Positions 687 to 47,100 of a stretch of 64,000 nt of DNA are shown here, one piece after another. The stretch comes from Plasmodiophora brassicae. Lineage: Eukaryota. A program made the translations under genes and the position numbers. A model generated the notes under the pieces. That model ran no database searches. It worked only from the letters and a program-made list of their open reading frames with translations, and had not been told where the DNA came from. Every line of letters begins with the position of its first letter. Position 1 is the first letter of the stretch. The DNA is taken from the NCBI GenBank assembly GCA_036867785.1, contig CP145420.1, positions 1,116,001 through 1,180,000 on the forward strand, in the 5' to 3' direction.

Positions 687-2129
687 ATGTTGCCGCCGAT
701 AGCGTCGACGGGCGGCGAACCGACGCCGCACCATCACGCGCCGCCGCCGAGTCGGACGCAGCAGCGCCGCCAGGTCCACGATTGGCGGCGGCGGTACGCG
801 AAAGCGAAGCACAGGGCGGACACGATCCGCGCCAAGACCAGCCAGCATCGGCACGCGGACGCGGCCGCAGGGCGAATGCCATCGGCACGGCCGACCACGG
901 AGGACCTCCTGTTCGCCATACCGAGGCGGCACCGGATGGCATCCGATTCGGCCGCCCGTATCGAGCGCCTGCTGAGCAAGGCCGCCGAGCGACGCGCCAA
1001 CCAGTCGGCGGCATTCAGCACCACGCTGCAGGAGCGCCTGCACCGGCTCGATGCCGAGGCGCGGCGCGTCCAGACCGAGGCCGGTGAGCGCCACAGGCAA
1101 CGGCCCCGGGAGACGCCGCCCCGCAAGGTGCCGCCGATGGGCGAGAAACCGCCGACGCCCCCTCAGCAACAGCGTCCATCACCGCCGCCGCCGCCGCCGC
1201 CGCCACCACCACCCCCGGCACAACGCAAAGCGGAACAGCCCAAGGCGCCGGCGCCAGGGGACCCGACCAATCTGTCGAACGTCGAGCGGTTCTTCTACGA
1301 CGAAGAGGTCCGGAGGCGGGCGAAGGAGGAGCGCGATCGACGACGACAGACGCGGCAGGAACGATCCGGCGAGGACGCCATCCGCACGGCGAAGAAGGTC
1401 TGGGAGCGCATGCAGCGAGATGTCGAGGCGAAATGGGCATCGTACAAACCCGCGGTAACCCCAATGGTCCCTGTCGAGTGCCTCGTGTCGTCTGACGCTG
1501 ATTCCCCGGGACAGCAGCAGCAGCAGCAGCAGCAGCAGGGCCATGGGCGCCAGTCGCAGACGTACTCGTGCTCGGCGTCGGCGTCGGATAAATGGGCGAC
1601 GACGCCCGTTCGGGACCTGAAGGCGTTGCTGCGGGGCCTGGGCGTTCCCGACTCCACAATGCTCTGCATGGAGCGCGGCGAGATCATCGCGCTGCTCGAG
1701 AAGAAGAGCGCCGACCAAGCCGCCAAACAGGAACGTGCCGCGCGGCAGAGAGCAGAGGAGGAATGCAACGACCGGTTGCGATCCAAGGTAGTCTGAACCA
1801 GAACGCTGCGGTCCATGCAGCCTTGTCCTCAGTTGCAGGTGCAGATTGTATGCGAAGTGGACGAGTGGAGGAAGAACCGGACGCTGCGCTGGATGCTGAA
1901 CAGCCTGAACAGCGCCGCGCCGGGCCAGGCGCCGTACCTGCCGGCGAACGCATCGTTCGAGACGGTCTGCAAGGTGTACAAGCGGGCGCTGCTGAAGATC
2001 CACCCGGATAAACATATAGGGACGACGCTGGAGTCCTGGTACCGCGCCGAGGAGACCTTCAAGGCCGTCAACGAGTCGTTCAACCAGTACAAGGCCCTGC
2101 ACGAACTGCGCTCTTACATTAAATCATAA
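687..2129 (+). CDS. Auxilin-like / DnaJ-domain protein, 2 exons (intron ~1788-1838)
   Basis: Low-complexity N-terminal part (poly-P, poly-Q) joined through a phase-0 GT..CAG intron to EVDEWRKNRTLRWMLNSL...VCKVYKRALLKIHPDK. This is a C-terminal J domain with HPD in an auxilin-type context. The start codon is inferred. Confidence 0.75.
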
Positions 2130-2287
2130 CACGCCAAGGTGCAGACGCTTCCCGGGACGACGATGACGCCACCAGGTGTCTGTTCGTTTCGCGTGTTACC
2201 CAGTCTGACGTCGGTTATCGGGTTCGTGGGTCCGCGTCGACGCCACACAGCGCTGTCGGTCGGCCGGGCGGATTGGCGGTGCCGGTC

Positions 2288-2971
2288 ATGAACTATTCGG
2301 TCGCGGTCCCGGCCCTCGTTCCGCTAGCGCAGGCGGCAGGACAAGCGGTCGTCGTCGGTTCGGCTGCTGCTGGAGTCGCTGCGGGCGCTCCGATGGCTGC
2401 CCACGATATCCTGGACGCTGCCTCGGAGGTCGACGCCCGCAAGCGCCTCCGGCTGTCCCATCCCGGCCGGATCACAGCGGAAGAGTTCGTCGACGCCCCT
2501 GTTCGGGAGCACGCGATCGTCAGTCAGCAGGCGTCAAGCGTTTATCCTGCTGCAGGCGCCCCCGCCTGGTTCGCGCCCGCCATGGCGGCAGCGCTGGGCC
2601 CCGTCGTGAATCACATGAACCACATAAACGCCAGGCTGGACGGCGTCTGCGCCAGGCTGGACAACACGCGGATCAGGGCCCGGCATGCAAGCCGTGCTGG
2701 CCTCAACACGGTGTTGCTCCCCGTCCTGAAGGAGACGGCTGGCCATCCGGCCGGTCAGACACCCGCCGTGTTCTCTGCCGCAATCCCGGCCGGTGCTGCT
2801 GAATTCCCTGTCGGCGCGCCTCTTCCGGATGTGCCGTTCTTCCCTCGAGCTGGCCTGAGCTCGACGGCACTGAATGCTCTGCCGGGCGCGCATCTCGCGC
2901 GTTTGGAATGGTTCTACAACGTCGATCTCGGTAACCGTTGCTGTCTGATCTCGGTAACCGTTGCTGTCTGA
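2288..2971 (+). CDS. Hypothetical Ala-rich protein, possibly Mug135-like C-terminal (DUF1773) family; left-arm copy, 3' end probably truncated
   Basis: Motifs APAWFAPAMAAAL...LDNTRIRAR...FP...LNAL....LARLEWFY resemble my recollection of Mug135_C proteins. Not verified. Confidence 0.45.
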   Translation: MNYSVAVPALVPLAQAAGQAVVVGSAAAGVAAGAPMAAHDILDAASEVDARKRLRLSHPGRITAEEFVDAPVREHAIVSQQASSVYPAAGAPAWFAPAMAAALGPVVNHMNHINARLDGVCARLDNTRIRARHASRAGLNTVLLPVLKETAGHPAGQTPAVFSAAIPAGAAEFPVGAPLPDVPFFPRAGLSSTALNALPGAHLARLEWFYNVDLGNRCCLISVTVAV

Positions 2972-3611
2972 TCAGACAGCAACGGTTACCGAGATCGACG
3001 TTGTAGAACCATTCCAAACGCGCGAGATGCGCGCCCGGCAGAGCATTCAGTGCCGTCGAGCTCAGGCCAGCTCGAGGGAAGAACGGCACATCCGGAAGAG
3101 GCGCGCCGACAGGGAATTCAGCAGCACCGGCCGGGATTGCGGCAGAGAACATGGCGGGTGTCTGACCGGCCGGATGGCCAGCCGTCTCCTTCAGGACGGG
3201 GAGCAACACCGTGTTGAGGCCAGCACGGCTTGCATGCCGGGCCCTGATCCGCGTGTTGTCCAGCCTGGCGCTTATGTGGTTCATGTGATTCACGACGGGG
3301 CCCAGCGCTGCCGCCATGGCGGGCGCGAACCAGGCGGGGGCGCCTGCAGCAGGATAAACGCTTGACGCCTGCTGACTGACGATCGCGTGCTCCCGAACAT
3401 GGGCGTCGACGAACTCTTCCGCTGTGATCCGGCCGGGGTGGGACAGCCGGAGGCGCTTGCGGGCGTCGACCTCCGAGGCAGCGTCCAGGATGTCCTGGGC
3501 AGCCATCGGAGCGCCCGCAGCGACTCCAGCAGCAGCCGAACCGGCGACGACCGCTTGTCCTGCCGCCTGCGCCAGCGGAACGAGGGCCGGGACCGCGATC
3601 GAGTAGCTCAT
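2972..3611 (-). CDS. Second copy of the same hypothetical protein (right arm); reads through the palindrome axis
   Basis: MSYSIAVPALVPLAQAAGQ... is near-identical to the left copy and has no stop before the axis. Confidence 0.45.
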
Positions 3612-4052
3612 GCCCGGAACCGACAATCCGACCGACGACCGACAGCGCTGCGCGACGGGTTTAGATCTGTTGACCGCACTCGGCACTCCTTTTGGCGTTT
3701 CCATTCATGAAGAGCAGTACAGCAAGGCGTCTGGGGCACGTCCTGACACTCGCTTCTTGCTAGTTGCTGACGTTCTGCTGTCTCGTCTCGAAGCACCCCG
3801 ATTGACTGATCAGCGCCACAACGTCGACCTGGCCCGTCGCCGTCCTCGTCCTGTGCTGTGCGCCATGGTCAATATGGTCAGCCCATACCTGAATACAGAC
3901 GTCCGGCTGTCCGATGCAGACCGGACCGCCCACCGCCCGTCCCCATTGGCAACGCGTACTGATTTACACTGTCGCCAATAGAAATAGCAATCTGTGGAGG
4001 GCTGGCCCCGCTTCCGTCCGGATCGCGGGGACGTCGGCCGTACGGCCACGTC

Positions 4053-15522: not shown

Positions 15523-18500
15523 ATGGAGCTGACAAGCAGCAGCAGCAGCGGCGGCTCGACAAGCGCTACCATCGTTACGAACGCCGATGCGAGCATCCTG
15601 CCCAAGGCTAACAACCTTGACTCGACATCGATCCTGACGCTGCGCGAGGCGTACAACCGCTACGTCGCCATCTTCGAGGATCGGGAGGCGCAGCAGCCGC
15701 GGGGGCGTCGACTTCGTCCGCAAGGCATCCGGCTGTGCTTCACCGCCGTGCAGTTGAAGGCCATTGCCGAAAATCACCTGGACCTGGACGACGGCGCCGA
15801 GGCGTTGACTGACGAATTGCTGGACGGATGGATCCGAGACCAGGTCAACGCATTGCCCACCAGCCACGGGCTGCGTATTCAGGACATCGAGTCCAAGATC
15901 GCGGATGAGCTTTCGATGGATACCTCGATGTCGACCCTGCGAGATCAAATCGCGTCAATCCCGGACCAGCTGACGGCCATCCAGGACCGCCACGGTTGGA
16001 AGCTGAGCGAGACCGCCGGAGGACGCAAGGCCATGGGGCGCCTGATCGCTGACTCGCTCCAGCCCGGCTACCTCCGCGGTCACGTACAGGCATGGGTCAA
16101 GGAGGACAAGGCCGAACGTGAAGGCAATACCAGGGCGATCGTTCGCGAGGCGCAGGATTGGGCGAGGCACTTCGTCGCGATCGGACGCGCCCGCAACGCA
16201 TCGATCAAGCGTCCTCGGAAGAAGTGTTCCGAACTGCGACTCGCCGACAAGCAGAGCAAGCTGACTCCCGCTGCGACAACTTCAGGTGGACGCCGCGTAC
16301 CAGCCCATCGCCCTGTGCCCGCCAACCGGCAATCGGGCCCACATCCAGTGACCGTGAACGCTCCCAAGCGCAACCGCGAACCGACTGCGACAAGTGACAG
16401 CAGCCAGATGACGGGGACGACTGATGGCAAGCGCGACTTCAAATGCTGGCACTGCTCTGGGCCACATAAGATGTCGATGTGCCCAGAGAAGCCGACGAGA
16501 GAAAGGCGCAATGAGCTCGCACGTCATCATCGGCCCGCAGGCGGACATCATCCCGATGGACGTCGACCGATTAAAGTCGCCAAAACTCGCGCCTACACTG
16601 GGATCCAGCACGTGACACAGCAAGTAGAGATCGAGGGAAGGCGTATCCCTTATGTTCTAGACTCTGGCTGTGATGGGGGAAACCTCATACCTGAACACGT
16701 TGCGAATGAGTTGAAGGGCGCCACGTTCGAGGTTATCGAGCCCCGAGAAATCGCATCAGCCGACGACCAAGTCATTGCCGTCAGCACCCGCATCGTCACC
16801 GTTCCAGTGACGAAACTCGAAACCAAAGCTGGGAATCTCACCCTGTACCATGTTGCCTACTATGTCTGCGACGCTATTCCAGTCATCTTATTCGGCGACA
16901 CACTACTCTCTATGATCGGCATCAGTCCACGTCAGCAACTCGAGGACATGATCGCATCCGGCACCACCGAGTTTGATGCCAGACTATCTGGATGCGCCAT
17001 GTTCGATGTGGAGTCGTTCGACGCCGTCAGTGAAATCGTTGCAAGGATGGCGACGTTGAGCGGCGACACGTATCAGGCGCCACATGTACACGATGCGGCG
17101 GAACCTACCTCCAGTGATGTCGACTTAGGGCCGATCAACGTTCAAGAGATTGAGGCATCCCTCACCCGCCTGATACATCAAGCACGCCTCAACGGCATGT
17201 CTCGTCAAGGGGTTGCACGGCTACGACTCATCCTTCGACGACACGTCAACGAATTCCGCACACAGCTTGGTCAGGACGGTCCCGTCAACATCGAACCTAT
17301 GATTACCAAGCTTCAACCAGACGCCACGCCGTACCGATGCAGACCACGCTCCTACAACCCGAAGCAAAAGGAGTTCCTCGACGAGATGATCAAGATGCTG
17401 TTGGAAAACAATCTGGTCTACCTCAACATGAACTCCAGATGGGCGAGTCCCGTTCTTGTGGTCAAGAAACCGAACGGCAAGGGGTACCGCCTGTGCGTCG
17501 ATCTGCGCCAGGTGAACTCGCGTACGGTACCAACTGCTTGGCCGATGCCCAACATCGAGGCGGCTAGTCGGAAGCTGGCTGGCATGACCTGCTTCTTCAC
17601 GATCGATGCCCACAAGGGGTTCTGGCTCATGCCAATTGCGAAGGAATGCCAGGAGATCTTCTCGTTTATGACCGACGACGGCGTCTACACGCCTACCAGG
17701 AGCATTCAGGGCGCGACCAACTCTGCCTTGCAGTTCCAGGCGCGGATCGGGAAGATCTTCGACGACATGAAGGATCACCTCTTGATATGGATCGACGACC
17801 TGCTGGGATTCGCCAAAACGGAAGACATTCTACTGCATCAGCTTGCACGTGTCTTGGAGCGAGCGCGCGAACGCAACTTGAAGTTCAACCCGGACAAATG
17901 CGTCCTATTCGCTCGAGAGCTGAAGTGGTGTGGGCGCATCTACTCTCGTGATGGAATCCGACACGATCCCGAACGAATCGAGGCGCTGACCAGCATGCCG
18001 CGTCCTAACACTTTCAAAGAGCTACAGCAGTTCATCTGGGCGGCCAACTGGATGCGTACCAGTGTTCCCGGTTACGCGTACATCATCGCCCCGCTCCAGG
18101 AGCTCACGGACAAGGCGAACGAGGAGATGAAGAGAATCCAGTCTTCGTCACCTTCGTCGATTCGGTTACATGATCTTGGATGGACAGACCGGCACAGCAA
18201 GGCCTTCGAGGACATACGCTTTGCGCTGATCCAGCACGTCCAGCTCGCGTACCCGAAGTCTGATCACCAGACATGCTTGTTCACGGACGCCAGTGACCTA
18301 GCATGGGCTGCGGTCATTACCCAGATTCCGAGGGAGGATATCGACCTACCAGTTCATGAACAACGACACGAACCACTTGCTTTCTACGGCAAGCGGTTCT
18401 CTGGCGCTGAGTTGCGATGGTCAACACCGGAGAAGGAGGCAGCCGCCATCATCAAGGCGACTGAACGTGGTGACTTCCTTCTGCAGACGTCGCGTGAATT

Positions 18501-20328
18501 CCTCATGTTCTGCGACCACCGGAACCTCACGTTCATCTTCGCGAAGGACGCTGAGATGAAGAAGCACACCGCTCAGAAAATCGAGCGCTGGGCGCTACAT
18601 CTCCAAGGGTTTGATTACCGTACCAAGGAGATCTCCGGCACTGCCAACGTCTGGGCCGACCTTTTATCTCGATGGGGCGCAGGACGAATCGCACTGGCGT
18701 GCCGGGCAACGCGCATCTTGCAGATGGACGATCTTCGCGTAACGCCGATGACGCATCCCGATTTCCAATGGCCGACTGAGACCGAAATTCGCGAATCGCA
18801 AAGGCTATTGTCGCGTGAAGAGAAAATCGAGGACGGCGTGTTCTTCGATGATGACGCTCGTTTGTGGAAGTCGAAAACGAACGCCGTTCTGATCCCGATT
18901 CACAACGACTGCACCAGCTTGCGCCTACGCATCATGATCATTGGTCATTGTGCCAGTGCTGCTCATCGCGCGTACGACGTTACCAAGGAGGCAATCACAA
19001 CGCGATTCGCTTGGCCGGGCATGGACAAGGACATTCAGCAGATGTGCCAGCAGTGTCTTCATTGCATCACGACGCGGGGAGGAGCGAAGGTTCCGCGTCC
19101 GCTTGGAGAAGCGTTGCATGGCCACATTCCATTCGAGGTCCTGCACATGGATTACTTGTACGTCGAACCAGTTCGAGGAACCGATCATTCTTATAAGTAC
19201 ATCCTCGTGATGAAGGACGACTTCAGTGGTCTCGTCCGATTGATTCCATGCGCCGATGCGACCAGCCGAGTTGCGGCAGAGGCACTATTCCAATGGATTG
19301 CCGACTTCAAAACACCACAATATCTTGTCACCGATGGCGGATCTCACTTTACCGCCGAACTCATCAAGGAGCTGACCAGGCTGCGAGACGTCGAGCATCA
19401 TATAACGTTGGCGTACTGTCCATGGGCAAACGGGACTGTTGAACGCGCCAATCGCACTATCGTTGGCATCCTACGAAGCGTTCTGAGTGAGGGGCAGATC
19501 AGCACGCACAGCTGGCCCTACCTCTGCCCATTGGTGCAACACGCCATCAACCATTCGCCGAGCACACGCCTCGGAGGTTTCGCGCCGTTCACGGTCGTCA
19601 CCAAGTTGAAACCCGAGCACCCTCTGGACAACATCTGGGATCCGGCATGCAATCAGCTGCGGCCGATCTCTCCGGGATGGGTGGCGACGTACCTGTCAGC
19701 ACTGCAGACCGTTATGGACGAACTCCATAAGGTCGTCGATGAAGCCAGGGAGGCGAGGCACGCGTCCAATGTACGGCAACGCTCGCGACACGTGAGGAAG
19801 GCCCAATGCGAGTCGTTCATCCCGGGCGACTACGTCTTGAACGCGAAGCCCGTCCCCGGACCCGCACAGAAGTTGATTGCGCAGTGGCGCGGCCCCTACC
19901 GAGTTGTTCAACGCGTCAATGACCAGGTCTACGAACTCGAAGACCTGTTGACTGCACGGCGCTTCCAAGCACACACGCAACGCATCCGCCGCTATGCGGA
20001 CGCCGATCTCAACATCACCACCGAAATCAAGCAGCACCTTGAGCGGCTTGACCAGCAGTTCCACGTTGACGACCTTCTCGATTGTCGTATCGATCGCGAA
20101 ACTCAGGAGTTGCAGATCAAAGTCGCTTGGTCCGGCTTCGACCCATCTGAGGCTACTTGGGAGCCTGCAGCACTTATCACCGAAGATGTACCGCAGCTTG
20201 TGGAACAACTTATTCGGAAACTGGGCGATACTCATGCACACGTCGCTGCATTGAGGCAATTGATTCCGGCGCCGAAACGCTCTCGCACTCGGAATGCAAC
20301 ATCGCATCGAAATAAGCGACGATCTTAA
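15523..20328 (+). CDS. Gag-Pol polyprotein of Gypsy A (intact)
   Basis: Zn knuckle CWHCSGPHKMSMC, PR LDSG, RT WIDD, RNase H FTDAS, IN HHCC plus D-D-E (HMDY, VTDGG, VERAN), GPY, chromodomain VAWSGFDPSEATWEP. Confidence 0.95.
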   Translation: MELTSSSSSGGSTSATIVTNADASILPKANNLDSTSILTLREAYNRYVAIFEDREAQQPRGRRLRPQGIRLCFTAVQLKAIAENHLDLDDGAEALTDELLDGWIRDQVNALPTSHGLRIQDIESKIADELSMDTSMSTLRDQIASIPDQLTAIQDRHGWKLSETAGGRKAMGRLIADSLQPGYLRGHVQAWVKEDKAEREGNTRAIVREAQDWARHFVAIGRARNASIKRPRKKCSELRLADKQSKLTPAATTSGGRRVPAHRPVPANRQSGPHPVTVNAPKRNREPTATSDSSQMTGTTDGKRDFKCWHCSGPHKMSMCPEKPTRERRNELARHHRPAGGHHPDGRRPIKVAKTRAYTGIQHVTQQVEIEGRRIPYVLDSGCDGGNLIPEHVANELKGATFEVIEPREIASADDQVIAVSTRIVTVPVTKLETKAGNLTLYHVAYYVCDAIPVILFGDTLLSMIGISPRQQLEDMIASGTTEFDARLSGCAMFDVESFDAVSEIVARMATLSGDTYQAPHVHDAAEPTSSDVDLGPINVQEIEASLTRLIHQARLNGMSRQGVARLRLILRRHVNEFRTQLGQDGPVNIEPMITKLQPDATPYRCRPRSYNPKQKEFLDEMIKMLLENNLVYLNMNSRWASPVLVVKKPNGKGYRLCVDLRQVNSRTVPTAWPMPNIEAASRKLAGMTCFFTIDAHKGFWLMPIAKECQEIFSFMTDDGVYTPTRSIQGATNSALQFQARIGKIFDDMKDHLLIWIDDLLGFAKTEDILLHQLARVLERARERNLKFNPDKCVLFARELKWCGRIYSRDGIRHDPERIEALTSMPRPNTFKELQQFIWAANWMRTSVPGYAYIIAPLQELTDKANEEMKRIQSSSPSSIRLHDLGWTDRHSKAFEDIRFALIQHVQLAYPKSDHQTCLFTDASDLAWAAVITQIPREDIDLPVHEQRHEPLAFYGKRFSGAELRWSTPEKEAAAIIKATERGDFLLQTSREFLMFCDHRNLTFIFAKDAEMKKHTAQKIERWALHLQGFDYRTKEISGTANVWADLLSRWGAGRIALACRATRILQMDDLRVTPMTHPDFQWPTETEIRESQRLLSREEKIEDGVFFDDDARLWKSKTNAVLIPIHNDCTSLRLRIMIIGHCASAAHRAYDVTKEAITTRFAWPGMDKDIQQMCQQCLHCITTRGGAKVPRPLGEALHGHIPFEVLHMDYLYVEPVRGTDHSYKYILVMKDDFSGLVRLIPCADATSRVAAEALFQWIADFKTPQYLVTDGGSHFTAELIKELTRLRDVEHHITLAYCPWANGTVERANRTIVGILRSVLSEGQISTHSWPYLCPLVQHAINHSPSTRLGGFAPFTVVTKLKPEHPLDNIWDPACNQLRPISPGWVATYLSALQTVMDELHKVVDEAREARHASNVRQRSRHVRKAQCESFIPGDYVLNAKPVPGPAQKLIAQWRGPYRVVQRVNDQVYELEDLLTARRFQAHTQRIRRYADADLNITTEIKQHLERLDQQFHVDDLLDCRIDRETQELQIKVAWSGFDPSEATWEPAALITEDVPQLVEQLIRKLGDTHAHVAALRQLIPAPKRSRTRNATSHRNKRRS

Positions 20329-24593: not shown

Positions 24594-27500
24594 TGTCAGA
24601 CTTTCGCCCAGTAGCTCCAGCTTCGATCGGGATGCCCTCGGAACATTCCGAGAGGCAACTAACCTGCGGACTGCGCGATACATAAAAATTATTTCTGGTG
24701 TTGTATTGCGTCGAGGCGGACCGTCCACTTCTGTCAGATTAACAGTCGTAAGAGGCGCTGCGATGTCGGACGGGACGGTCGATCCGGTGGGCAAGAAGGG
24801 CATGGGGTCGCTTGCCCGGATCAGGGACGCGGCCGAAGACTTCAAGGAAGCGTTCGTCACCGACACACTGGAATCACTGAGGCCCGAGCACGAGCTCGCG
24901 CGAGAGGCGGTCGTCAACAGCATCAATCGCATGGCTGTCTGCAAGCAAAATTGGACACGAGCGATGAGGGCACTGAAGCTCGAGGACGATGATGACGTTG
25001 ATGTCGTCGCTGCCATGATGCTGACCATGCGAATGACGGAGGACTGGATGGAACTTCTAGAGGACATGTACTGCGATCGCCTAGGGGTCAGGAGGAAGCG
25101 AACGCAAGCATCGGAGCGGGCGCAGGCATTGCGATCGAACCCTGAAACAGTTACGCGATGGGAAGAACTGATGTCCAAGATTACCCAGAAGGGGACGGTG
25201 ATGACGGAGGAATTCCAGATTTCGATTTTGAGGAACCGAATGTTGAGACGCTACGACTTGGATGTCAAGGACTTCGAGACTAAGGGTGAGCTGTTCAAGC
25301 ACTGCATTGCCAAGGACCCTAAAGGCATGCGATCGAGCAAGAGGGACGGCAAGAAAGAGGATGACGAAGACACGGTGATGTTCACCCTGAGGAACGGGAA
25401 GAAGGTCAACCTGGCCACCGTTAAATGTCACCGATGCAACCAGATGGGACACTTTCAATGGATGAGAGACAAGTGCAATAAGGCCGGCAGTGACGACGGC
25501 AAAAGTGAGGACGGAGAGATGTTCATGACGGTCAAGGACAAGGGCAAGTTCGACGAGGACATCTGGGTGAATGACGACGCAGCCCCGTGGCATGTTTGCA
25601 ATTCGCGGGAGGCATTCGTGGACATGGACGAATGCCAAGGCAAGGTACTGGGAGGCGACAAAGAGTATGAGGGCGCCGACATCGCGGGGATCGGGACCGT
25701 GCGCATCACGACGAAGAGCGGCAATCAGATCACGCTTAATGAGACGCGCTACGTGCCGAGCTTCAAGACCAATCTCATATCCGGTCAAAGAGTGATTGAC
25801 ATGGGATGTACAGTGAGGGGAGACAAGACAAGATTGGAGTACATGCGCAAGGGCAAAGTGGTGCTAAGCATGTCGCGATACAAAGGGTACTGGGCGCTAA
25901 GGGCAACCCCGAAACTTCAGTCGGTTCTATTCGGACAACCTGGACCGGCGGTGTCGCTGAGCACGTGGCACGAACGCTTTGGACATGCATCGTATGACAA
26001 GCTGATGAAGTTGATCAAAGAAGAATCGTGCGAGGGCCTGAACGCGTCGGACGTCAAGGCACCTGAGGGGAAGTGTGTCGATTGCTATATCGGGAAAAGC
26101 AAACGGCAAGCATTCGTGAAAGAAGGCGACGAGGCGAAGGAAATCGGAGAGGTGATACACGCGGACATCAGTGGCAAGTTCTCTGTCAGGGGACGGAGTG
26201 GGAACTGGTACTTCTCTGTACTCCGAGACAAGAAGAGTCGACATGGGTGGGTCAAGCTGATCAAGCGGAAAAGCGAAGCGGGCCAGCACTTCATGGAATT
26301 CAAGCCCTGGTTCGAGCGCCAGACGGGGAGGAAGATCAGAAGGTACGCCAACGACAAGGGAGGCGAATTCGTGTCAAAGGAACTGCGGGAGTATTTGAGC
26401 GCTGAGGGCATCGAGATTTGGGAGACCAACACTGCCACACCGAATGAGAACGGACTTGCCGAACGATACGTGGGGATGATCAAGGACATGGCGACTACGA
26501 ATCACGAACGATCAGGCCTACCGAGAATGTTCTGGGATGATGCCGTGGAACACGCTGGAGTCATCACACCACTGCTGCCGACGAACAAAGTAGAAGACGG
26601 GAAGACACCATTCGAGATCATCCACAACCGGAAGCCGCGAGTTTCACAACTGAGACCATTCGGATGTCAGGCGATCGTGTACCAGTCGAAAGACACGCGA
26701 AGGAGTTCGAGATCAAAAGCGAAGGGCATCGAAGGAGTGATGATCGGGTATGCGCCCAGCCGCCCAGGGTACAAAATCTACATCACAACGTCCAAGAAGG
26801 AAGAGACAAAGGCGAAGTTGATCATGAACGAGATGGCAATGTTCGCTGACGCCGAACCCGACGTGGGAATGCAGGACGTAATGAACGAAGTCATGTTCCA
26901 ACAGACCAAGGCGAGTGAGGTACCACTACCAACATCGTACGAAGAGGCGATCGCGAATGAGAATTGGAAAAGAGCAATCGAGGACGAGCAAGAGGCCATG
27001 AGAAACCGCGACGTGTTCCGACTGATGCCATTACCGACGGGTCGAAAGGCATTGAAATGCGACTACGTCTACAAGGCGAAAGCGAATCCTGATGGATCCG
27101 TGAGCAAGTATAAGGCGCGACTTGTTGCGAAGGGGTACGACCAGGTGAAGGTGATTGACTACGTGGACACCTTTGCACCGGTGGCAAAGCTAGCAACTCT
27201 GAGGCTGCTGATTGCGTTGAAGGTGATACGGCGGTATACCGCCTGGCAAAGGGACGTCAAAACGGCATTCCTGTACGCCGACTTGAAGGAGGACGTATAC
27301 ATCCAACAACCAAAACGCATGGAAGACGATGACCACCCGGACTGGGTGTGGAAGTTGAATAAGTCGATCTACGGCCTGAAACAAGCATCGGTCGAGTTCT
27401 ACAAGCATCTAGTGACCGCGTTCCTGAAGGGCGGATTTGAACAATGCAAGAGTGATCCGTGTCTGCTGAAGAAGGTCGACGGTGACGATGTCGTGTTCGT

Positions 27501-28625
27501 GGCGTTTCATGTCGACGACATTCCGATCGTGGGGAGCTCAACCCGGATTATGCTCGAGGCTGACCAAGTGCTGAAAGACAACTTCACGGTCGAGGAGAGC
27601 GAGTTCGAATGGATGCTGGGGATCAACATGAAGTGGTCGCCAGACGGAGGCGTGCATCTTAGCCAAGAATCGTTCGTCGAGATGCTCCTGACCAAGTTCC
27701 ATATGACCAGCGCCAAGGGTGCAAACACACCAATGCAGAAGGGCGAGACGATATCGGCACGGGGGAGCCCAAGGACCGACGATGAGCGGATAGAGTCCAA
27801 GCGGCTACCATATCGAGAGTTAGTCGGTTCCTTGTTGTATCTCACCGGTACGAGACCCGACATCGCGTTTGTGGTGGGACGACTGTGCCGTTTCATGGGC
27901 TGCTACGGCGCGAACCACTACGAGGCAGCCAAGCGAGTGCTACGGTATTTGAAGACGACGAAGGACATGGCGTTGAAATACCCTTGCTGTGAACAGAGCG
28001 AACAGCTGAAACTCATCGTGGACTCCGATCACGCAGGATGTCCCGACACCGGAAGGTCCACGACCGGGTATATGATCAAGTTTGGTGAATGCATGATCAC
28101 GTGGAAATCCGTGCTGCAGAAGACTGTGGCGCTGTCGACCACCGAGGCCGAGTACATGGCCCTATGCAGTGGGGTGCGCGAGCTATTGTGGGTGAAGCAG
28201 GTGTGTGAGTTTCTTCAGGTCAAATTTGAAGGACCGATCGCGGTGTTCACGGACAACACTGGAGCGATGGCCATTTCGAACCACCAAGGGGATGACCTGC
28301 GTGGGAGGACCAAGCATATGAACGTGCGCTACCACTTCACGAAAGAACAAGTACATGCAGGAACCATCAAGCTGCACCATGTACCGAGCACGAGGAACGT
28401 TGCGGACATCCTCACGAAGCCACTCACGAGGGATGCATTCGAGGGGCATCGTGCGAAGATCCCGATCGATTCTGCGGGGGAGTGTCAGACTTTCGCCCAG
28501 TAGCTCCAGCTTCGATCGGGATGCCCTCGGAACATTCCGAGAGGCAACTAACCTGCGGACTGCGCGATACATAAAAATTATTTCTGGTGTTGTATTGCGT
28601 CGAGGCGGACCGTCCACTTCTGTCA
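24594..28625 (+). mobile_element. Copia LTR retrotransposon
   Basis: LTRs 24594-24736 and 28483-28625 (143 bp, identical by eye), TSD TATTG, PBS gattaacagtcgta, PPT gcgggggag. Confidence 0.97.
24763..28503 (+). CDS. Copia Gag-Pol (PR-IN-RT-RH order)
   Basis: WHERFGH..C..C, IHADISG, NDKGGEF, NGLAER, YKARLVAKG, DVKTAFL, HVDD, VALSTTEAEY, ADILTKPL. The stop lies inside the 3' LTR. Confidence 0.93.
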   Translation: MSDGTVDPVGKKGMGSLARIRDAAEDFKEAFVTDTLESLRPEHELAREAVVNSINRMAVCKQNWTRAMRALKLEDDDDVDVVAAMMLTMRMTEDWMELLEDMYCDRLGVRRKRTQASERAQALRSNPETVTRWEELMSKITQKGTVMTEEFQISILRNRMLRRYDLDVKDFETKGELFKHCIAKDPKGMRSSKRDGKKEDDEDTVMFTLRNGKKVNLATVKCHRCNQMGHFQWMRDKCNKAGSDDGKSEDGEMFMTVKDKGKFDEDIWVNDDAAPWHVCNSREAFVDMDECQGKVLGGDKEYEGADIAGIGTVRITTKSGNQITLNETRYVPSFKTNLISGQRVIDMGCTVRGDKTRLEYMRKGKVVLSMSRYKGYWALRATPKLQSVLFGQPGPAVSLSTWHERFGHASYDKLMKLIKEESCEGLNASDVKAPEGKCVDCYIGKSKRQAFVKEGDEAKEIGEVIHADISGKFSVRGRSGNWYFSVLRDKKSRHGWVKLIKRKSEAGQHFMEFKPWFERQTGRKIRRYANDKGGEFVSKELREYLSAEGIEIWETNTATPNENGLAERYVGMIKDMATTNHERSGLPRMFWDDAVEHAGVITPLLPTNKVEDGKTPFEIIHNRKPRVSQLRPFGCQAIVYQSKDTRRSSRSKAKGIEGVMIGYAPSRPGYKIYITTSKKEETKAKLIMNEMAMFADAEPDVGMQDVMNEVMFQQTKASEVPLPTSYEEAIANENWKRAIEDEQEAMRNRDVFRLMPLPTGRKALKCDYVYKAKANPDGSVSKYKARLVAKGYDQVKVIDYVDTFAPVAKLATLRLLIALKVIRRYTAWQRDVKTAFLYADLKEDVYIQQPKRMEDDDHPDWVWKLNKSIYGLKQASVEFYKHLVTAFLKGGFEQCKSDPCLLKKVDGDDVVFVAFHVDDIPIVGSSTRIMLEADQVLKDNFTVEESEFEWMLGINMKWSPDGGVHLSQESFVEMLLTKFHMTSAKGANTPMQKGETISARGSPRTDDERIESKRLPYRELVGSLLYLTGTRPDIAFVVGRLCRFMGCYGANHYEAAKRVLRYLKTTKDMALKYPCCEQSEQLKLIVDSDHAGCPDTGRSTTGYMIKFGECMITWKSVLQKTVALSTTEAEYMALCSGVRELLWVKQVCEFLQVKFEGPIAVFTDNTGAMAISNHQGDDLRGRTKHMNVRYHFTKEQVHAGTIKLHHVPSTRNVADILTKPLTRDAFEGHRAKIPIDSAGECQTFAQ

Positions 28626-31369: not shown

Positions 31370-34300
31370 CTACTGGACTCCTTCCGCCTTAAGTAACTCC
31401 TTAACCTCATCAGCAAGGAAGTGTTTCTCCTTCCTCATCCTGGCTGCATGGGTCTTCACCATCGTTGGTACATCCTTCGCCAACCTGCAGATTGGCTCCC
31501 ATGAATTCTCAGCCTCAGAGAAGCCCTTCCATCCGATCAACAATTCCAATTCCCCTGTCTCTGGACTATGCCTGCAGTCCTTGAAGACCTCAATGGCGAA
31601 ACGCTCATTGTCATAATCCATCTGTCGCTTCAATTCCTCAGTGGCATTCAGTTTGCCATGCTCATAGAGGCGACCGCGGTCCCCGTGAACGGTTCGCGTG
31701 TCCGTCTCATTGAACATATTCCTCACCTCGTAGGTGTAGTTCTCGTGGCTATCAGTTATTTGATATAGGCCCCGCCACTTCATAAAGAGCTTCTTGCCCG
31801 GAACCTTACCCGGTTCAGGCAATCCAATAAGCACATAGTCACCGATCTGAAAGTTCGGTGCAGTTGCTCGTCGGTACGCGTCGCTCCTCTTCCTGTGTAC
31901 GGCTCGGATATTTCTCGATTGCTTCACTGCTCCCTTGTGCATTTCATTCAGCGACGTCTGCAGTTGCATGACTAGCTCCTGAATATGCTCCTTTGAGAGT
32001 GTAGCTTCCCCATACTTCTCATCCCCTGGCCTCTTGAACACTTGTTTCAGCGGGTTGTCTGGTTGACGTCCCATCATCACTGTCACCGGCGCATTCCCGT
32101 TGGTACGCGCCTGCGACCTGTGATTGATCGTGTGTTCAATGTTGTGGTTCAACCATGGCCAGTCGTGTTTGTCCCACTGCAATTCAGACAGAAGTGCTCT
32201 GACTAGTTGCAAGTAGTTCCTGTTGATCACCTCGATCGATCCATTACTGTAATGCCCATAGGCAACAGTCGGGTGATGAGCAAATCCGCATGGACGCGCC
32301 AGATCCTTTACAACGTTTGCCAAAAAGCAAGACGCCATGTCTGACACCATCAACTCAAACGTTCCGAAGATAGCCCTCCATTCGAGCAGTGCCTCTACAG
32401 TGGTTTCTGAATTGGGGATATGGTCAGGAGTAATCTTGACCATGCCAGACAGATCGTCCCTGATTATCAGGTTCCATTGCAGATCATGCCTTCCACCCTT
32501 CTCAGCCGGCATCATGTACAGCCAATCCAAGTGAATCACCTGATTCGGCCTTACACCATGAACAACAGCTGTTCCCAGTGGCCTGGGAATCCTAACCCCG
32601 CCCCTTGTCGGTAGACAGTTCAAACACGCGTTGCAGAACTTCCTCATGTCCTCATCGCAGTGAGCCCAATGGCAGAACTCCCCCAACTTCCTCAACGAGG
32701 CCTTCAGTCCTAGATGCCCACTGTTTCCGCCCGCATGAGCAATAGCGCATAGCTGCAGCTTCAGCTCGTTGCATTCGTCTAGTATGATCCCTTGTCCCTT
32801 CCCTGTGACGAAGAGATCATCACCATTCTTCGGTCGTTTCATTCCTCTGAGCCATTTCTTCTGTGCCTTACGGATTTCGTCCACGGTCGGCCATTGGAAT
32901 TCCTTCCTTTGTAACGGCCGTACCCGATATCCGTCCTCAACTTGAAGCGTAATCCTCCTGATCGTGCGTACCTCTAGGTGCTGGTCATCAGGTCCACCGT
33001 CCGGTGCACCCCACCGCGTCATCAGATCCGACCACACATTGTCCTCCCCCGCAATGTGTTCAATGACGTAGTTGACCCTCTGTATGTCCAGTGCCCATCG
33101 TTGCAGTTTCTGCGCCGTTGGCTTTGACACGTCCGTTGGTGAGAATATCCTCACGAGGTTCCTATGATCGGTGAACAGACGAAACTGCTCGTTGGTTGTA
33201 AAGAGATAGTCCAGTTTGTCAATTCCATCCTTGATCGCGAACCCTTCCTTCTCCACCGTGGACCAGTTCCGCTCTGGGCCCGCGAACTTGTGTCCGACGA
33301 AACCCAGCGGTTCATGTCGCTGCCCATGCACTGGTTTACCCAAATCCTCAGGCGGAATCTGTGTGACTACCGCCGCGCTGTTGACCTCATTTGCATCCGA
33401 AAATAGGCATTGGATCCGGTCCTTTCGCGGGTACGCTAGTTGGACCGCGTCCGCCACTGCCATCTTCAGTTTCTCGAATGCCAGCGCATGTTCGGGTGAC
33501 CATCCATATTTGCACAATCGCACCCTCCTGGCAATGGCTTTCGTCCTGCCAGGTTGGTCCCTCATCGCATCCTCATATATCCTCTGCAACAGGTGTACCT
33601 TCCTGTTGTACTCAGGGATGGACCTGCTCATCCACTGAGTTGCCATTAGGAATTGTTGAAAGTCCCTTGCTGTCCTCGGCTGTGGGATCGCCATCAAAGC
33701 TTCGATCCTCGCTGGATCGTGCCTTGCCCCTTCTGGCGTGAATATCCTCCCACAGAACCTAACCTCTGTCGTGAAGAGCTCACACTTCTCCACGTTGAAC
33801 TTGATGTTATGCCGTTCGGCTAGCATCAGAGTTCGTTCCAACGTTCGGAACCAATCATCCTCCCTCTGGGCATGCCCCATTAGATCATCGATCCATATGA
33901 TTAGTTTGTGAAACATCAGTTCCCCGAACACCTCAAACATCCTCCCTTGATACTGAGGGGCGGAGTTCATTCCCCCCTGCATCGACCTCGTTGGCTTATA
34001 CACCCCCTTATCTGTCATGAAGGAGAAGATCTCCTGACACGCTTCATCCAGCGGCATCATCCAGAAGCCTTTGAACGCGTCTAGCTTAAACCAGAACCTC
34101 GAGCCTGCCAGGTTCCTCAGTATCGCCTCCTGATGTGGCATAAGCCACGCCACGGCGACACATTTGGCATTAACAGCTCTGAGATCAACACAGAACCGCT
34201 TTCCGCCCCCTGGCTTCGTCACCACCACCACCGGTGAAGCCCACTTCGCGTTGTAGTTTTCAACGACGAGGCCGTACTTCTTCAATTGGGCAACGAATTC

Positions 34301-34654
34301 CTCCATGAAAGCACTGTCCTCCATACTGTACTTTCTGGCTCGGCACCTGTAAGGTTCCGCCTCTGGTTTCAGCTCCGTGACAAATGGTGTAACCCTGGCT
34401 GGACCATCGGGTCCAACGCTCATACGCCAAACGTCCCTGTACCTCTTGACGAGCTTCCGCAGCGATTTTGCCATCGCCTGCGGTAGGCCATTCCTCAATG
34501 CGCGCTCGACCATCCCGTCCATCTCCCTTTCCAGGGAGTCTGTGGAATCTGCCCCGATCCTCACATCCTCTGTTTCCTCTTCCTCCCCTTCCCAGAGAGG
34601 TGGCACCTCATTTGCCATATTGTGCACTTCATCCATGACGTCATTCCCCTTCAT
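31370..34654 (-). CDS. Gypsy B RT-RNase H-integrase-chromodomain
   Basis: WIDD, FSDAN, HAGGNSGH...CNAC, HLDWLY, VSD, SIEVIN, GWKGFSEAENSWEP. Confidence 0.9.
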   Translation of the reverse strand: MKGNDVMDEVHNMANEVPPLWEGEEEETEDVRIGADSTDSLEREMDGMVERALRNGLPQAMAKSLRKLVKRYRDVWRMSVGPDGPARVTPFVTELKPEAEPYRCRARKYSMEDSAFMEEFVAQLKKYGLVVENYNAKWASPVVVVTKPGGGKRFCVDLRAVNAKCVAVAWLMPHQEAILRNLAGSRFWFKLDAFKGFWMMPLDEACQEIFSFMTDKGVYKPTRSMQGGMNSAPQYQGRMFEVFGELMFHKLIIWIDDLMGHAQREDDWFRTLERTLMLAERHNIKFNVEKCELFTTEVRFCGRIFTPEGARHDPARIEALMAIPQPRTARDFQQFLMATQWMSRSIPEYNRKVHLLQRIYEDAMRDQPGRTKAIARRVRLCKYGWSPEHALAFEKLKMAVADAVQLAYPRKDRIQCLFSDANEVNSAAVVTQIPPEDLGKPVHGQRHEPLGFVGHKFAGPERNWSTVEKEGFAIKDGIDKLDYLFTTNEQFRLFTDHRNLVRIFSPTDVSKPTAQKLQRWALDIQRVNYVIEHIAGEDNVWSDLMTRWGAPDGGPDDQHLEVRTIRRITLQVEDGYRVRPLQRKEFQWPTVDEIRKAQKKWLRGMKRPKNGDDLFVTGKGQGIILDECNELKLQLCAIAHAGGNSGHLGLKASLRKLGEFCHWAHCDEDMRKFCNACLNCLPTRGGVRIPRPLGTAVVHGVRPNQVIHLDWLYMMPAEKGGRHDLQWNLIIRDDLSGMVKITPDHIPNSETTVEALLEWRAIFGTFELMVSDMASCFLANVVKDLARPCGFAHHPTVAYGHYSNGSIEVINRNYLQLVRALLSELQWDKHDWPWLNHNIEHTINHRSQARTNGNAPVTVMMGRQPDNPLKQVFKRPGDEKYGEATLSKEHIQELVMQLQTSLNEMHKGAVKQSRNIRAVHRKRSDAYRRATAPNFQIGDYVLIGLPEPGKVPGKKLFMKWRGLYQITDSHENYTYEVRNMFNETDTRTVHGDRGRLYEHGKLNATEELKRQMDYDNERFAIEVFKDCRHSPETGELELLIGWKGFSEAENSWEPICRLAKDVPTMVKTHAARMRKEKHFLADEVKELLKAEGVQ

Positions 34655-39571: not shown

Positions 39572-40639
39572 TCGTTCAGGACTGATCGCATGACGTTAAG
39601 CACAGTGCGGTTCGCGCGTTCCACCGTACCGTTAGCCCACGGACAATATGCCGTTGTGATGTGATGCTGAACATCTCGTAGCCGGGTAAGCTCCTCCATG
39701 ACTTCTGCAGTGAAGTGTGAACCCCCGTCCGTGACCAGGTACTCGGGCGTCGCGAAATCAGCAATCCACTGGTTCAGAGCTTCCGCAGCAACACGACTTG
39801 TCGCTTCAGCTGATGGAATCAGACGAACATAACCACTGAAGTCGTCCTTCAAGAGCAGGTTATACTTGTACTTGTGGTCCGCGCCCCTGACAGGCTCCAC
39901 GTATAGATAGTCCATGGTGAGTACGTCGAACGGCTGGTGACCATGTAATGCTTCACCGAGCGGCCGAGGAACTTTCTTACCACCGCGTGTCGTGATGCAA
40001 TGCAGGCATTGCTGACACATCGCTTCAATGTCCTGATTGATCTTGGTCCAGAAGAAGCGCTCCGTGATCATCTGCTTGGTTACTTCCGACGCACGATGAC
40101 CAGCTCTTGCGCATTGGCCAATGACCAGGATTCGAAGGCGTAGACTCTTGCAGTCTTGATGACACGGAATAAGAACGGCTTTGCTCTCGTTCTTCCACAG
40201 ACGATCAGCTTCATCGAAGGACACCCCGTCCTCTATCTTTTCCTCTCGTGACAGAACGCGTTGCGAATCGCGGATCTCCTTTTCGGTCGGCCAGCTGAAT
40301 TCAGGATGTTGCCGAGGAGTGACTCGCAAATCGTCCATCTGCATGATGCGCGTTGCTCTACATGACAGTGCGATGCGACCAGCTCCCATCGGGTCAGAAG
40401 GTCCGCCCATACGTTGTCGGTTCCAGCGATCTCCTTCATCTTGTAGCTGAAGCCTTGTAGATGCAATGACCATCGCTCTAGGTAGCTTCTGCGCCGTATG
40501 CTTCTTGATCTCCGAGTTCCGGTCGAAGATGAACGTCAGATTGCGATGATCGCAGCAGGAACTCCCGGGATGTCTGCAGTAGGAAATCACCGCGCTGCGT
40601 AGCGTTGATGATCGCGGCTGCCTCCTTCTCGATGTCTTC

Positions 40640-44182: not shown

Positions 44183-47100
44183 TGTCAGGCGTCGACATAG
44201 CAGGTCGGCGCCGGAATAAAGTCCGTGCGAGCGGGGACCGACGGCAGTCGGTCAACGCGTCGTCGAATAGTCGTCACAGTTTGACCGACCTTCACCATGG
44301 ACACTCGTGGAACCCAACGCAACCGCGATCACCAGGACCCCGACGAGGAGCCATTGAACACACACCCTTATCGGCGCTGACCAGCACGATCGCGGCGATC
44401 GTAGCAGAGGCGCTCCAGGCACAGCGCGCCGACATCGACGCCATGCTCCGGCAGCAGCGCGCTGAGATCTTGGCGCAGGTCGCCGCCAGCCCGTCCATCG
44501 TCCCCAAGACCGGAACCGTTGATCCTGATCGACCGCCGACTCCCTTGTCGACCATATCGTACTCGACACCAGTCCGGCTGCACACGTTCACGGGCGATGA
44601 CTCGGTCGATCCAATGTCTGCGACGACGTGGTTCGACGAGTTTTGCCGCTTCGCTGACGCGGATCCGACGTCAACGGCACCGCTGTCGAATGCGGCCAGG
44701 AGCCTGTTGGCGTCGAGCCTGGACGGCGTGGCGCTGAAGCTGTACGTGGCTATCAAGCCATCGTCCCCGCAGGCCCTCAAGACAATGCTCCTGGAGAACT
44801 TTCCGGAGATCACTGCCGCGCGCGCCAAGGCTGAATTCGACGCCCTGCGCCAGACGGGCCCGTTTGCCGGGCATCTCGTGGAGTTTCGTCGCCGCTACTT
44901 TGTCGCTGTCGCCCGCGACCCGGACTGCCGTCTAAGCGACTCCTCGCTGGCCGAGAAGCTGCGCACATCGCTGACCCCTGCGCTGGCCGAGGAGCTGTAC
45001 AAGTGGCAGCTGCGCAGCTTCTCCGCCATGGTGGATAAGGCGGTCCACTGGCGCCGCTGTTCCCGGTGCCGTCGACTGCGATTTTGAACGTGGCCACAAG
45101 CGCGCTGCAGCCGCTGACCGACGAGGAGCGGGACCGTTGTCGCCGCGAAGGCCGCTGTTTTCGCTGTCGCGAACCGGCACACATGGCGAACCAGTGCCCC
45201 CGGTTCCAGCCGGGAAATGTTCGCGGGTGATCCGAGCCGGGTTCGCGGATCGCCCACTACATGACGACATTCTTGAACCCGATTGCCTCTTTATCTCTTC
45301 TATTTATTCCAGCGTACGATTCGTCCCGTCTGTCACTGTCCCCATTCAGCTATTTATCGCATCACGTGTCATCTCGACTAAGGCCCTTATCGATTGTGGC
45401 GCTACGCCTTCGTTCGTCGACTGGTCCTTCGCTCGGTCGAACGACATTCCCTGCGTTGCGAAGCAGCAGGCGATTGCTGTCAAAGTGGTTGATGGCAGGG
45501 CCCTACCGCCGGTGTCGCAGGAGACGCTACCCATGGCTGTGAGGGTCGACGGTCAGTTCCAGGACAGCAACTTGATTTTGAATGTGATCCGCGCTCCCAA
45601 CCATCCCATCCTTCTCGGGATGCCGTGGCTCGAACGCCATAATCCGGTGATCGACTGGCGTCAGCGATCTGCTGCCCGCCGTGACTCGGCGACCCCAACA
45701 TCGACACCGGCTCCGCCACGTCGCTCACCTCTACAGTATCGACGCTAGACAAGGTCGACCCCATGATTCCGGTAGGCGAGAGCCGAGTCGCTGAGGGAGC
45801 TTCTCGCCCGTCGGATCCTCCTGCGTTCACCTTGGACCAGCGCTCCGATGCCTGCTCTCCGCGTCAACAGCGAACTGATGGCGGTCCCGTCTTGTCGGCC
45901 GTGACCCACACCCCAGCCTCTGTGGCGGCTGAATCGTGGGTCACATCTGGCCTTCGATTATGTTTTGTGGGCCTGTGGCTGGTTTGCATAGCGCTACTGC
46001 CTCTCCTTGTCTGTCTCTGCTCCGGCGCCCTTGTCGCCTGGATCTTTCGGCTCGCGCTACTGGGATGCGGTTTCGGCGCTTGTTTCGCCTGGAGTTCCTT
46101 GTCCGCACCCCTGAACGGTTGCCGACCCACCGTCCGCGATGGGCCTGTCAACCCAGCCGCGACCGAGGGCCCCGCGTCTGCAAACGTGGCCACGTCGTCG
46201 ACTTCTGCCGCGAGTCTATCTCCAGTTCGATCCGGTCATTCGTGCGATCGCCGGCCAGCCGAATGGCGTGGTGGGTGCCGCCGCCCACCCCTTAGCCGGC
46301 GCAGCATGGCAACCGTTACCACCGAGGCCGCAACCCCGACTACATCTCCCGATGCGTTATGGGTTCGGCGCGGTGTCGTCTTATGGGGTCTGCTTCGCGA
46401 TGCTCGCCAGCAACTTTCCGAACGGCAAGCGGCTACTCAGATCCTCGCCTCGGCAGCCCTCCTGCGCGCATGGGAAACCAGGCGAGACGCTGCCTTTGAG
46501 GCCTGGCTGGACACTTCACCTTGTGACCGGACACCTTGGCCGCCTTTCGACGAACCTGCGTCCGCGACCGGGGTGGATTCCGACGCCCACGACGACGAAG
46601 TCGTTGGTGCTGCAGCCGTGCCGCAAGACCCCGCATGCATCGACGTTTGCGCGCTCGATATCGATGCATTCCTGGATGCGGCTGCGGAGGACGGTTCGGC
46701 GTGTTACGCGGTCCACACGATGTGGACACCGCTCGAAGAACCAGACGACTCGCCCCATCTTCCAGACAAGTACGCTGAGTTTACGGATGTCTTCGACGAA
46801 ACCGGGGCCACGTCCTTACCTGCTCATCGCCCATACGACTGTTGTATCGACCTGAAACCGGACATGGAATCCCCGTTTGGTCGCTTGTACGGGCTATCTC
46901 CGAGGGAAAAAGTTGCATTCAAACAGTACCTGAAGGCAAACTTGGAATCGGGGTTCATTCGTCCATCGAAGTCGTCAGCGGGGGCACCGATCCTCTTCGC
47001 AAAAAAGAAGGATGGCTCTCTCCGCCTCTGTGTCGACTATCGGGGCCTGAATGCGGCTACCGTGAAGAACCGCTACCCGATACCTCTCATCGACCAGATC

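Follow-up and report, generated by a model that had tools for sequence, protein, structure and literature searches.

A near-spacerless inverted duplication of a Tdk1-related gene in Plasmodiophora brassicae as a candidate hairpin-RNA locus

Within a 64,000-nucleotide (nt) stretch of the genome of the rhizarian crop parasite Plasmodiophora brassicae (GenBank assembly GCA_036867785.1, contig CP145420.1, positions 1,116,001 to 1,180,000 of the forward strand; hereafter the window, in whose own numbering all positions are given), two copies of one open reading frame (ORF) lie convergent, tail to tail, and meet at position 2971/2972 to form a palindrome of 1.4 kb. Sequence data from independent studies identify this palindrome as a genuine chromosomal inverted duplication in P. 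brassicae, a conclusion that, for the structural part alone, is held with high confidence, and the centre of the palindrome differs between isolates. The duplicated gene belongs to a family of ~200-residue proteins related to the meiotic driver Tdk1 of Schizosaccharomyces pombe, and its right copy is expressed. The whole chain of events proposed below, in which a real inverted duplication, kept by gene conversion, gives rise to a read-through hairpin RNA and hence to small interfering RNAs (siRNAs) acting on paralogues, is considered to have an even chance of being correct.

Inverted repeats were located by a repeat search of the window, and the arms were compared by arm-to-arm global alignment (Table 1). 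Three nested inverted repeats share the centre at 2971/2972, which is the middle of a GATC (2970-2973), and a weaker 22-nt pair (86%) carries the homology of the arms out to 2241/3657. The alignment contains 16 substitutions, together with a 1-nt gap at 2262, and the substitutions are distributed unevenly. Specifically, moving outward from the axis, none is found in the first 200 nt, one (2768/3152) between 200 and 470 nt, six between 470 and 650 nt and nine between 650 and 724 nt, corresponding to densities of 0%, 0.37%, 3.3% and 12%, respectively; under uniformity, the probability of finding at most one of the 16 in the inner 470 nt is 1.6e-6. Besides its single substitution, this inner portion contains a 23-nt tandem duplication and a 21-nt indel. 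An earlier note on this DNA had described two facing gene copies joined at this axis with no spacer, an inner ~300 bp differing by about one substitution and a 23-nt duplication, mismatches that rise outward and a 21-nt indel, and both the repeat search and the arm alignment agree with that description, with the qualification that the centre may also be read as a small loop.

Since the doubled ARLD motif of the left arm is also present in the P. brassicae paralogue P0002, the 21 nt absent from the right arm were probably lost there by slippage between 12-nt repeats. The 23-nt duplication, for its part, has GATC at its start and at its end, and because of it the long arms are also readable as 302-nt arms around a 19-nt loop. 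Thus the palindromic core has no spacer, yet the effective loop measures 19 nt here and 31 nt in another isolate (X10, described below). An RNA of 1441 nt covering the palindrome is predicted to fold at -1614 kcal/mol, with pairing around the 19-nt loop.

Both ORFs are open, with 227 and 221 family residues uninterrupted by a stop. The frame of the right copy continues beyond the axis, reading the left arm in antisense as far as a stop at 2703-2705 and adding ~90 unrelated residues. As had been noticed previously, neither copy has a native 3' end: alignment and TBLASTN reveal that both lack the final ~17-19 residues (xxxxSRRxxLxxFLxx) that follow ...LEWFYN(V/I)DLG in the homologues P0002, P0005, P0006 and P0007. 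Because the break comes after G|GTAAC, a splice-donor-like sequence, the axis may lie inside the last intron. Ahead of the indel, the arms differ by five non-synonymous and four synonymous changes, and a further V/M difference is found at 2768. Within the window, TBLASTN with family proteins found matches in the two arms only.

Part of the region 2000-3900 is present in 20 of 24 public runs, from 8 studies, and contigs of four runs (X1, X10, X9 and X13), from four studies, were aligned to 1900-4000 at a likeness of at least 97%. X1 and X10 were taken as DNA and X9 and X13 as RNA, assignments that are guesses, as no run is recorded as RNA. Aligned contigs left uncovered 2319-3531 in X1, 3051-3293 and everything right of 3351 in X10, and 2326-2641 in X9 and X13; gaps in contig cover prove nothing, and contig depth does not equal copy number. 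A junction was regarded as bridged where a contig held 31 letters on both sides of it. In X1, contigs covering 1900-2311 and 3532-4000 show no differences from the window, each carrying the alleles specific to its own arm. A contig of X10 likewise enters the left arm from the left flank, reaching 2311 with left-specific alleles, and X10 is another isolate, distinguished by single-nucleotide polymorphisms and a 3-nt insertion in the flank. Similarly, a contig of X9 (2983-3642) displays right-specific alleles and no differences. Short-read contigs from the other studies have arm-specific alleles on their own flanks, and neither a fold-back read nor a merging of haplotypes can account for this; the assembly artefact against which the earlier note had cautioned is thus excluded by junctions with arm-specific alleles in four runs of four studies.

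The same contigs reveal that the centre of the palindrome varies. In X10, where contigs span 2289-2899, a contig of 103 nt consists of 2870-2905, a single C and 2985-3050 and thereby bridges an inverted junction, with 36 letters to one side and 66 to the other; since 2985-3050 reads as the reverse complement of 2870-2935, the contig forms a hairpin loop with both of its ends on the same arm contig. Additionally, the arms of X10 differ from one another where those of the window are identical (a branch at 2684/2685; 2900/3020), and homogenisation therefore seems to have continued after the isolates split. A contig of X13 (2957-3137) shows no differences and ends exactly 15 nt beyond the axis, which does not amount to a bridge by the 31-letter rule. 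This distance equals (k-1)/2 for the word length of k=31 that we take to underlie the X13 contigs, and, because in a k=31 graph the word 2957-2987 and its left neighbour are reverse complements of each other, a k=31 contig cannot extend further into a perfect palindrome. The right-arm contigs of X13 and X9 cross 2996/2997 without the branch expected from the 23-nt duplication, and the isolates behind these two runs may therefore lack it.

With regard to transcription, a 706-nt contig of X9 is a spliced minus-strand RNA, running in the direction of the right copy, because the ends of its 61-nt joint are CT..AC. The same contig goes from 2307 straight to 3613-3642, skipping 1305 nt. A 5-nt repeat, CCCGG, is found at 2308-2312 and 3613-3617, and the joint lies 42 and 22 nt inside the ends of the stem. 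Canonical splicing was considered as an origin of this joint and rejected: the 5-nt overlap permits six registers, and none of them has GT..AG or CT..AC. Instead, the joint bears the hallmark of a hairpin passed over by a polymerase. The skipping of hairpins by reverse transcriptase is a known artefact, and the joint could have arisen in this manner on a transcript holding both arms. The right arm is covered up to the axis by the contigs of X9 and X13 described above, and the right copy is expressed, because the X9 contig carries right-arm alleles. This copy lacks its own terminator, and its transcription would be expected to read through into the left arm. Of the earlier suggestion that transcription of the palindrome yields double-stranded RNA (dsRNA), the transcription stands in part, in that the right arm is covered to the axis in two presumed RNA runs, with splicing in one, whereas a transcript of both arms would rest on the 2307/3613 joint of one contig. 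The spliced minus-strand RNA, coming from the side of the palindrome, is also antisense to the 3' end of a neighbouring J-domain ORF.

The setting in which such a transcript would be produced has been characterized recently. According to the parts of that report drawn upon here, RNAs of 21 nt make up 90% of the small RNAs in P. brassicae, and these RNAs are phased, with 2-nt offsets and a 5'-C bias; silencing is mediated by two Argonautes (PbAGO1/2), the Drosha-like RNase III PbDRL processes long dsRNA to 21-mers, and the organism is described as having no Dicer and no RNA-dependent RNA polymerase (RdRP; PMC13547706). The authors call the origin of the siRNA precursors unclear, present a palindromic region yielding microRNAs (miRNAs; their Fig. 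2G) and list 435 PHAS, 49 heterochromatic siRNA (hc-siRNA) and 234 miRNA entries in the coordinates of their own assembly (their Tables S6-S8; PMC13547706). Four of the miRNA sequences listed there have 0 matches each in the window, and among 200 of the 234 miRNA species (~215 rows) none matched the arms when compared by eye, a comparison that is unreliable. Against this background, a role of the palindrome in making hairpin siRNAs appears plausible, and the chance that the locus yields siRNAs at all is put slightly short of even.

Possible targets are hinted at by sequence depth. A 37-nt unitig (2282-2318) reaches ~2.5x the depth of the flank in both X1 and X10, yet the right arm has 4 mismatches to it over the corresponding stretch, which argues for further copies of the first codons of the gene elsewhere in the genome. 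These extra copies are not the annotated paralogue P0003, the 10th residue of which differs. In X10, a 58-nt unitig (3294-3351) also shows ~2.5x flank depth. Such extra copies hint at possible targets for siRNAs acting in trans.

The family to which the duplicated gene belongs was approached first by a word-based homologue search, which returned 8 proteins. These include P0002 (134 residues, the C-terminal half of a paralogue), P0003 (125 residues, an N-terminal half) and P0004 (309 residues), all from P. brassicae, where paralogues are 71-72% identical in protein, as well as P0005 (236 residues) from the chytrid Zopfochytrium, proteins of Aphanomyces and one PF08593-bearing JGI protein. Searched with a profile, 1.84 billion representatives yielded 417 proteins at E <=0.001, 111 at E <=1e-10 and 16 at E <=1e-30, most of them 180-250 residues long and matching end to end. 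Among 68 aligned members, PF08593 (Mug135_C) was detected in 11 and DUF3294 in 11, at E <=0.001. The gathering score of PF08593 is 23.8 bits, and the relative P0008 scores 73.1 bits against it; the proteins of the window gave no PF08593 match, whether both copies were searched at E <=1 or the left copy at E <=10 and at E <=0.001. P0005, which is ~41-42% identical to the window protein over the full length, is nearest to Mug135-like clusters in a protein atlas (0.94). In a metagenome scan, a 35-nt segment taken from the arm gave 0 loci.

In S. pombe, mug135 and tdk1 are names of the same single-gene killer meiotic driver, and the C-terminal domain of Tdk1, the structure of which has been solved (PDB 9ja5 and 9ja6), carries DUF1773/PF08593, as described in the consulted portions of PMC11551393. 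Residues 92-236 of P0005 were modelled with the family alignment (pLDDT, the predicted local distance difference test score, 92.3) and compared with all 48,161 representative chains: Tdk1 chain 9ja6_A matched with Z 8.5 and a root-mean-square deviation (rmsd) of 3.3 Å over 123 of 145 residues and chain 9ja5_A with Z 7.7, the next chain after Tdk1 reaching Z 3.7. Foldseek with the same model placed 9ja5_A first, weakly (E 1.1). The AlphaFold model of the window protein itself (mean pLDDT 88.7) met Tdk1 at rank 16 (Z 5.6, rmsd 8.4 Å); with this whole model Foldseek returned nothing at E <=0.001, and a sequence-profile search of the PDB missed Tdk1, giving 9 chance-level rows (best E 0.11). Judged from the models, the family shares the fold of Tdk1, a stalk helix with a globular C-terminal domain, and the stalk helix and C-terminal domain superpose on those of Tdk1. 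The copies in the window are divergent, truncated members of this Tdk1-related family that fail the Pfam test. The initial guess of Mug135_C/DUF1773 consequently holds at the level of the superfamily, on the strength of PF08593 in 11 of 68 members and the Z of 8.5, but not for the window protein, which has no Pfam match. Compared with Tdk1, identity is ~10%, and the window proteins are ~130 residues shorter and without the last helix. Killing and drive are known for S. pombe Tdk1 only, as far as the consulted portions of the report extend (PMC11551393). In Aphanomyces astaci, one contig carries two members (P0007 and P0009) whose locus tags, H257_02820 and H257_02822, are two apart, and the family also occurs in Pythium, a chytrid and many fungi, a patchy spread that would suit a selfish or mobile gene.

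From these data the following course of events can be proposed. A replication template switch or fold-back at a self-complementary GATC, possibly in the last intron, would have copied the gene backwards, and the GATC-bounded 23-nt duplication could come from the same kind of slip. Repeated arm-to-arm conversion, proceeding from the centre, would keep the inner 470 nt near identical while the outer ends drift, giving the gradient of 0-0.4-3-12%; the conversion or cruciform repair after spacer loss put forward in the earlier note would fit this gradient. The changes at the centre (the 23-nt duplication in the window and the 79-nt deletion with an added C in X10) would represent the usual fate of an unstable palindrome. 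Having lost its terminator, the right copy would give a minus-strand transcript that crosses the axis, continues along the entire left arm and enters the left flank, and this read-through RNA would fold into a hairpin of ~690 bp. In an organism with Argonautes and a dsRNA-cutting Drosha-like enzyme, and with no RdRP, such a hairpin would be a natural source of 21-nt siRNAs that could act on paralogues.

Several observations weigh against this proposal. Firstly, the 2307/3613 joint could equally well be explained by DNA replication having made a deletion allele that was then transcribed; the joint comes from one contig of one run, and the status of X9 and X13 as RNA is guessed, though X9 shows splicing. 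Secondly, across the four runs no contig bridges the axis of the window itself with 31 letters on both sides, and none contains the 23-nt duplication. Thirdly, the inner-arm contig of X10 has a depth of 43.9 against 42.4 for the flank, rather than twice the flank, which is unexplained; snap-back fragments could have been lost from the library, or the population could be mixed. Finally, both ORFs are still open, and both copies may still be translated.

The differences between the arms look near neutral, which fits decay as well as it fits an RNA role, and they lead to the first of the competing explanations, namely that the palindrome is a structural scar in which a real fold-back duplication inactivated or duplicated a dispensable gene and transcription is incidental, with no part in silencing. 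The variation of the centre between isolates would suit a scar. However, a hairpin RNA produced beside a dsRNA-cutting RNase III and Argonautes, as these are described in the consulted parts of PMC13547706, would be diced whether useful or not. The near identity in which the inner arms have been kept also speaks against a scar, and this explanation is rated as unlikely, though a serious competitor.

A second explanation, which appears improbable, is that the palindrome holds a pair of working protein genes, two coding copies being preserved by arm-to-arm conversion as they are in the palindromes of mammalian sex chromosomes. Consistent with such a pair, both ORFs are open, the stop of the left copy falls exactly at the axis and AlphaFold models the window protein with confidence; against it, both copies are without the last helix of the Tdk1-like C-terminal domain that is present in homologues, the right copy reads into unrelated residues, and non-synonymous changes are as common as synonymous ones. 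Lastly, an assembly or sequencing artefact, whether a fold-back chimeric long read or merged haplotypes, is very improbable, for although spacerless palindromes are a classic long-read artefact and neither the exact axis nor the 23-nt duplication is bridged by 31 letters on each side, the arms differ at 16 sites and by indels, the short-read contigs from separate studies have each arm version on its own flank, one X10 contig crosses an inverted junction, and the X13 contig stops 15 nt past the axis. A foldback transposon was also considered and rejected, as the arms consist of a cellular-type gene and a reading of the sequence found no target-site duplication at 2241/3657.

Comparison with known systems places the candidate hairpin-RNA locus in context. 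Hairpin-RNA (hpRNA) loci of Drosophila arise by inverted duplication of a protein gene. Two of these, Nmy and Tmy, are reported to silence the Dox family of meiotic drivers in Drosophila simulans (PMC10292708, PMC10317233). The P. brassicae locus resembles them in being an inverted duplicate of a coding gene with paralogues elsewhere as possible targets, in deriving from a family with a proven meiotic driver, and possibly in transcription across both arms, which here would rest on one presumed RNA contig that joins the flanks. In contrast to Nmy and Tmy, the arms are fused almost without a loop and are known from DNA and RNA contigs, not from small RNAs; the host is a rhizarian with a Drosha-like enzyme in place of Dicer, and no driver activity is known in P. 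brassicae. That the locus is a hairpin-RNA suppressor evolved from a Tdk1-like selfish killer gene, with 21-nt siRNAs diced by PbDRL restraining intact paralogues, is a long shot; if true, it would be a parallel to the Nmy/Tmy-Dox system in a parasite with neither Dicer nor RdRP.

In young plant MIRNA genes and the maize locus Mu killer, hairpin RNA comes from an inverted duplicate of the gene or transposon that is targeted. Common to these and the P. brassicae locus would be an origin by inverted duplication of the future target and an extended similarity between arm and target, whereas spacers and proven small RNAs are found there and the P. brassicae locus is near-spacerless and a candidate only. 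Long perfect DNA palindromes are known to resolve by deletion of the centre, and fold-back inverted duplications are likewise known. The near-spacerless repeat described here, with an asymmetric central deletion and 1-nt filler in another isolate and with microhomology both at the axis (GATC) and at the 1305-nt skip (CCCGG), behaves similarly, but it persists across isolates of a natural haploid/diploid parasite, and its identity gradient points to repeated homogenisation. The locus offers a natural example of a near-spacerless palindrome surviving and changing, with homogenisation outward from the centre and with both deletion and duplication variants, and it can be typed in many sequenced isolates.

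The closest comparison is with the palindromic small-RNA loci reported from isolate PbJS of the same organism, in which, within the parts of the report consulted, genomic palindromes are sources of 21-nt RNAs (PMC13547706). With no RdRP, fold-back transcripts would be the obvious source of dsRNA. The present locus differs in being a protein gene and in having arms far longer than most precursors in the examined parts of Table S8 (PMC13547706). Hairpin loci derived from inverted gene duplication are therefore already known, and palindromic small-RNA loci have already been reported in P. brassicae (PMC13547706, in the parts consulted); what is unusual here is the Tdk1-like content together with a near-spacerless, polymorphic centre. 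No published report of this locus was found in the literature on Plasmodiophora RNA interference or inverted repeats or on Mug135, as judged partly by titles and the openings of abstracts. Transcribed genomic palindromes are the simplest candidate source of siRNA precursors in an organism lacking RdRP, and this locus is an unusually clean one, with a recognisable protein gene, near-perfect arms, a centre that varies between isolates and tentative RNA evidence across it. If it does produce siRNAs, it would suggest an answer to where the siRNA precursors of P. brassicae come from, a matter left open in the sections consulted (PMC13547706). That a selfish gene family might coexist in a crop parasite with a hairpin derived from that family is a testable idea.

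Table 1. Positions of the palindrome, its parts and neighbouring features in the window.
Feature	Position	Strand	Details
Left arm	2241..2971	+	Homology onset ~2241-2265
Right arm	2972..3657	-	Repeat search and arm alignment
Perfect palindromic core, 25+25 nt (50 nt)	2947-2971/2972-2996	.	0 nt between arms; repeat search
Inner inverted-repeat arms, 302 nt, reported 100%	2649-2950/2970-3271		Repeat search
Outer inverted-repeat arms, 377 nt, 96%	2265-2641/3258-3634		Repeat search
Left gene copy, 227 residues	2288..2971	+	TGA stop 2969-2971 abuts axis; family homology ends ~2932 (...LEWFYNVDLG)
Right gene copy	2703..3611	-	Family start codon at 3611; homology ends ~2988
21-nt stretch, left arm only	2628..2648	+	Encodes second half of ARLDGVC-ARLD; arm alignment
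23-nt tandem duplication, left arm only	2924..2969 (units 2924-2946, 2947-2969)	+	Arm alignment
Centre segment, 79 nt, replaced by a single C in isolate X10	2906..2984	.	Leaves 31-nt asymmetric loop
Segment skipped in X9 RNA contig	2308..3612	-	Joint 2307->3613 at CCCGG microhomology
Intron, 61 nt, GT..AG	2057..2117	-	X9 joint 2054/2116, CT..AC with cut +2
Left-flank ORF with J domain	1815..2129	+	PF00226, E 1e-5, below curated cut-off
Gypsy elements with chromodomains	ORFs 15523-20328, 57967-62718, 31370-34654, 45763-48978, 54211-56694		
Copia element	24763-28503		

The palindrome had been described as lying amid housekeeping genes, and this is accurate for its immediate surroundings, where the flanking genes comprise the J-domain ORF and those for Tim17, an MFS protein and a kinesin, but not for the wider neighbourhood, in which an island of long terminal repeat (LTR) retrotransposons of ~50 kb (15500-64000) begins 12 kb away. 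On the left, poly-Q (CAG run 1513-1538) and poly-P occur in a 436-residue ORF, and the 104-residue ORF with its C-terminal J domain comes 18 nt later (486-2129 in all, plus strand); the two are probably one gene with an intron or a frame change between them. GC content falls from ~64% to ~54% at the edge of the island, which holds Gypsy and Copia elements (Table 1) and many long inverted matches between copies, such as one of 811 nt at 97% (39572-40382 vs 63027-63837). The island also contains a perfect 83-nt inverted repeat (49930-50012/50169-50251) with a 156-nt loop, a second candidate hairpin locus.

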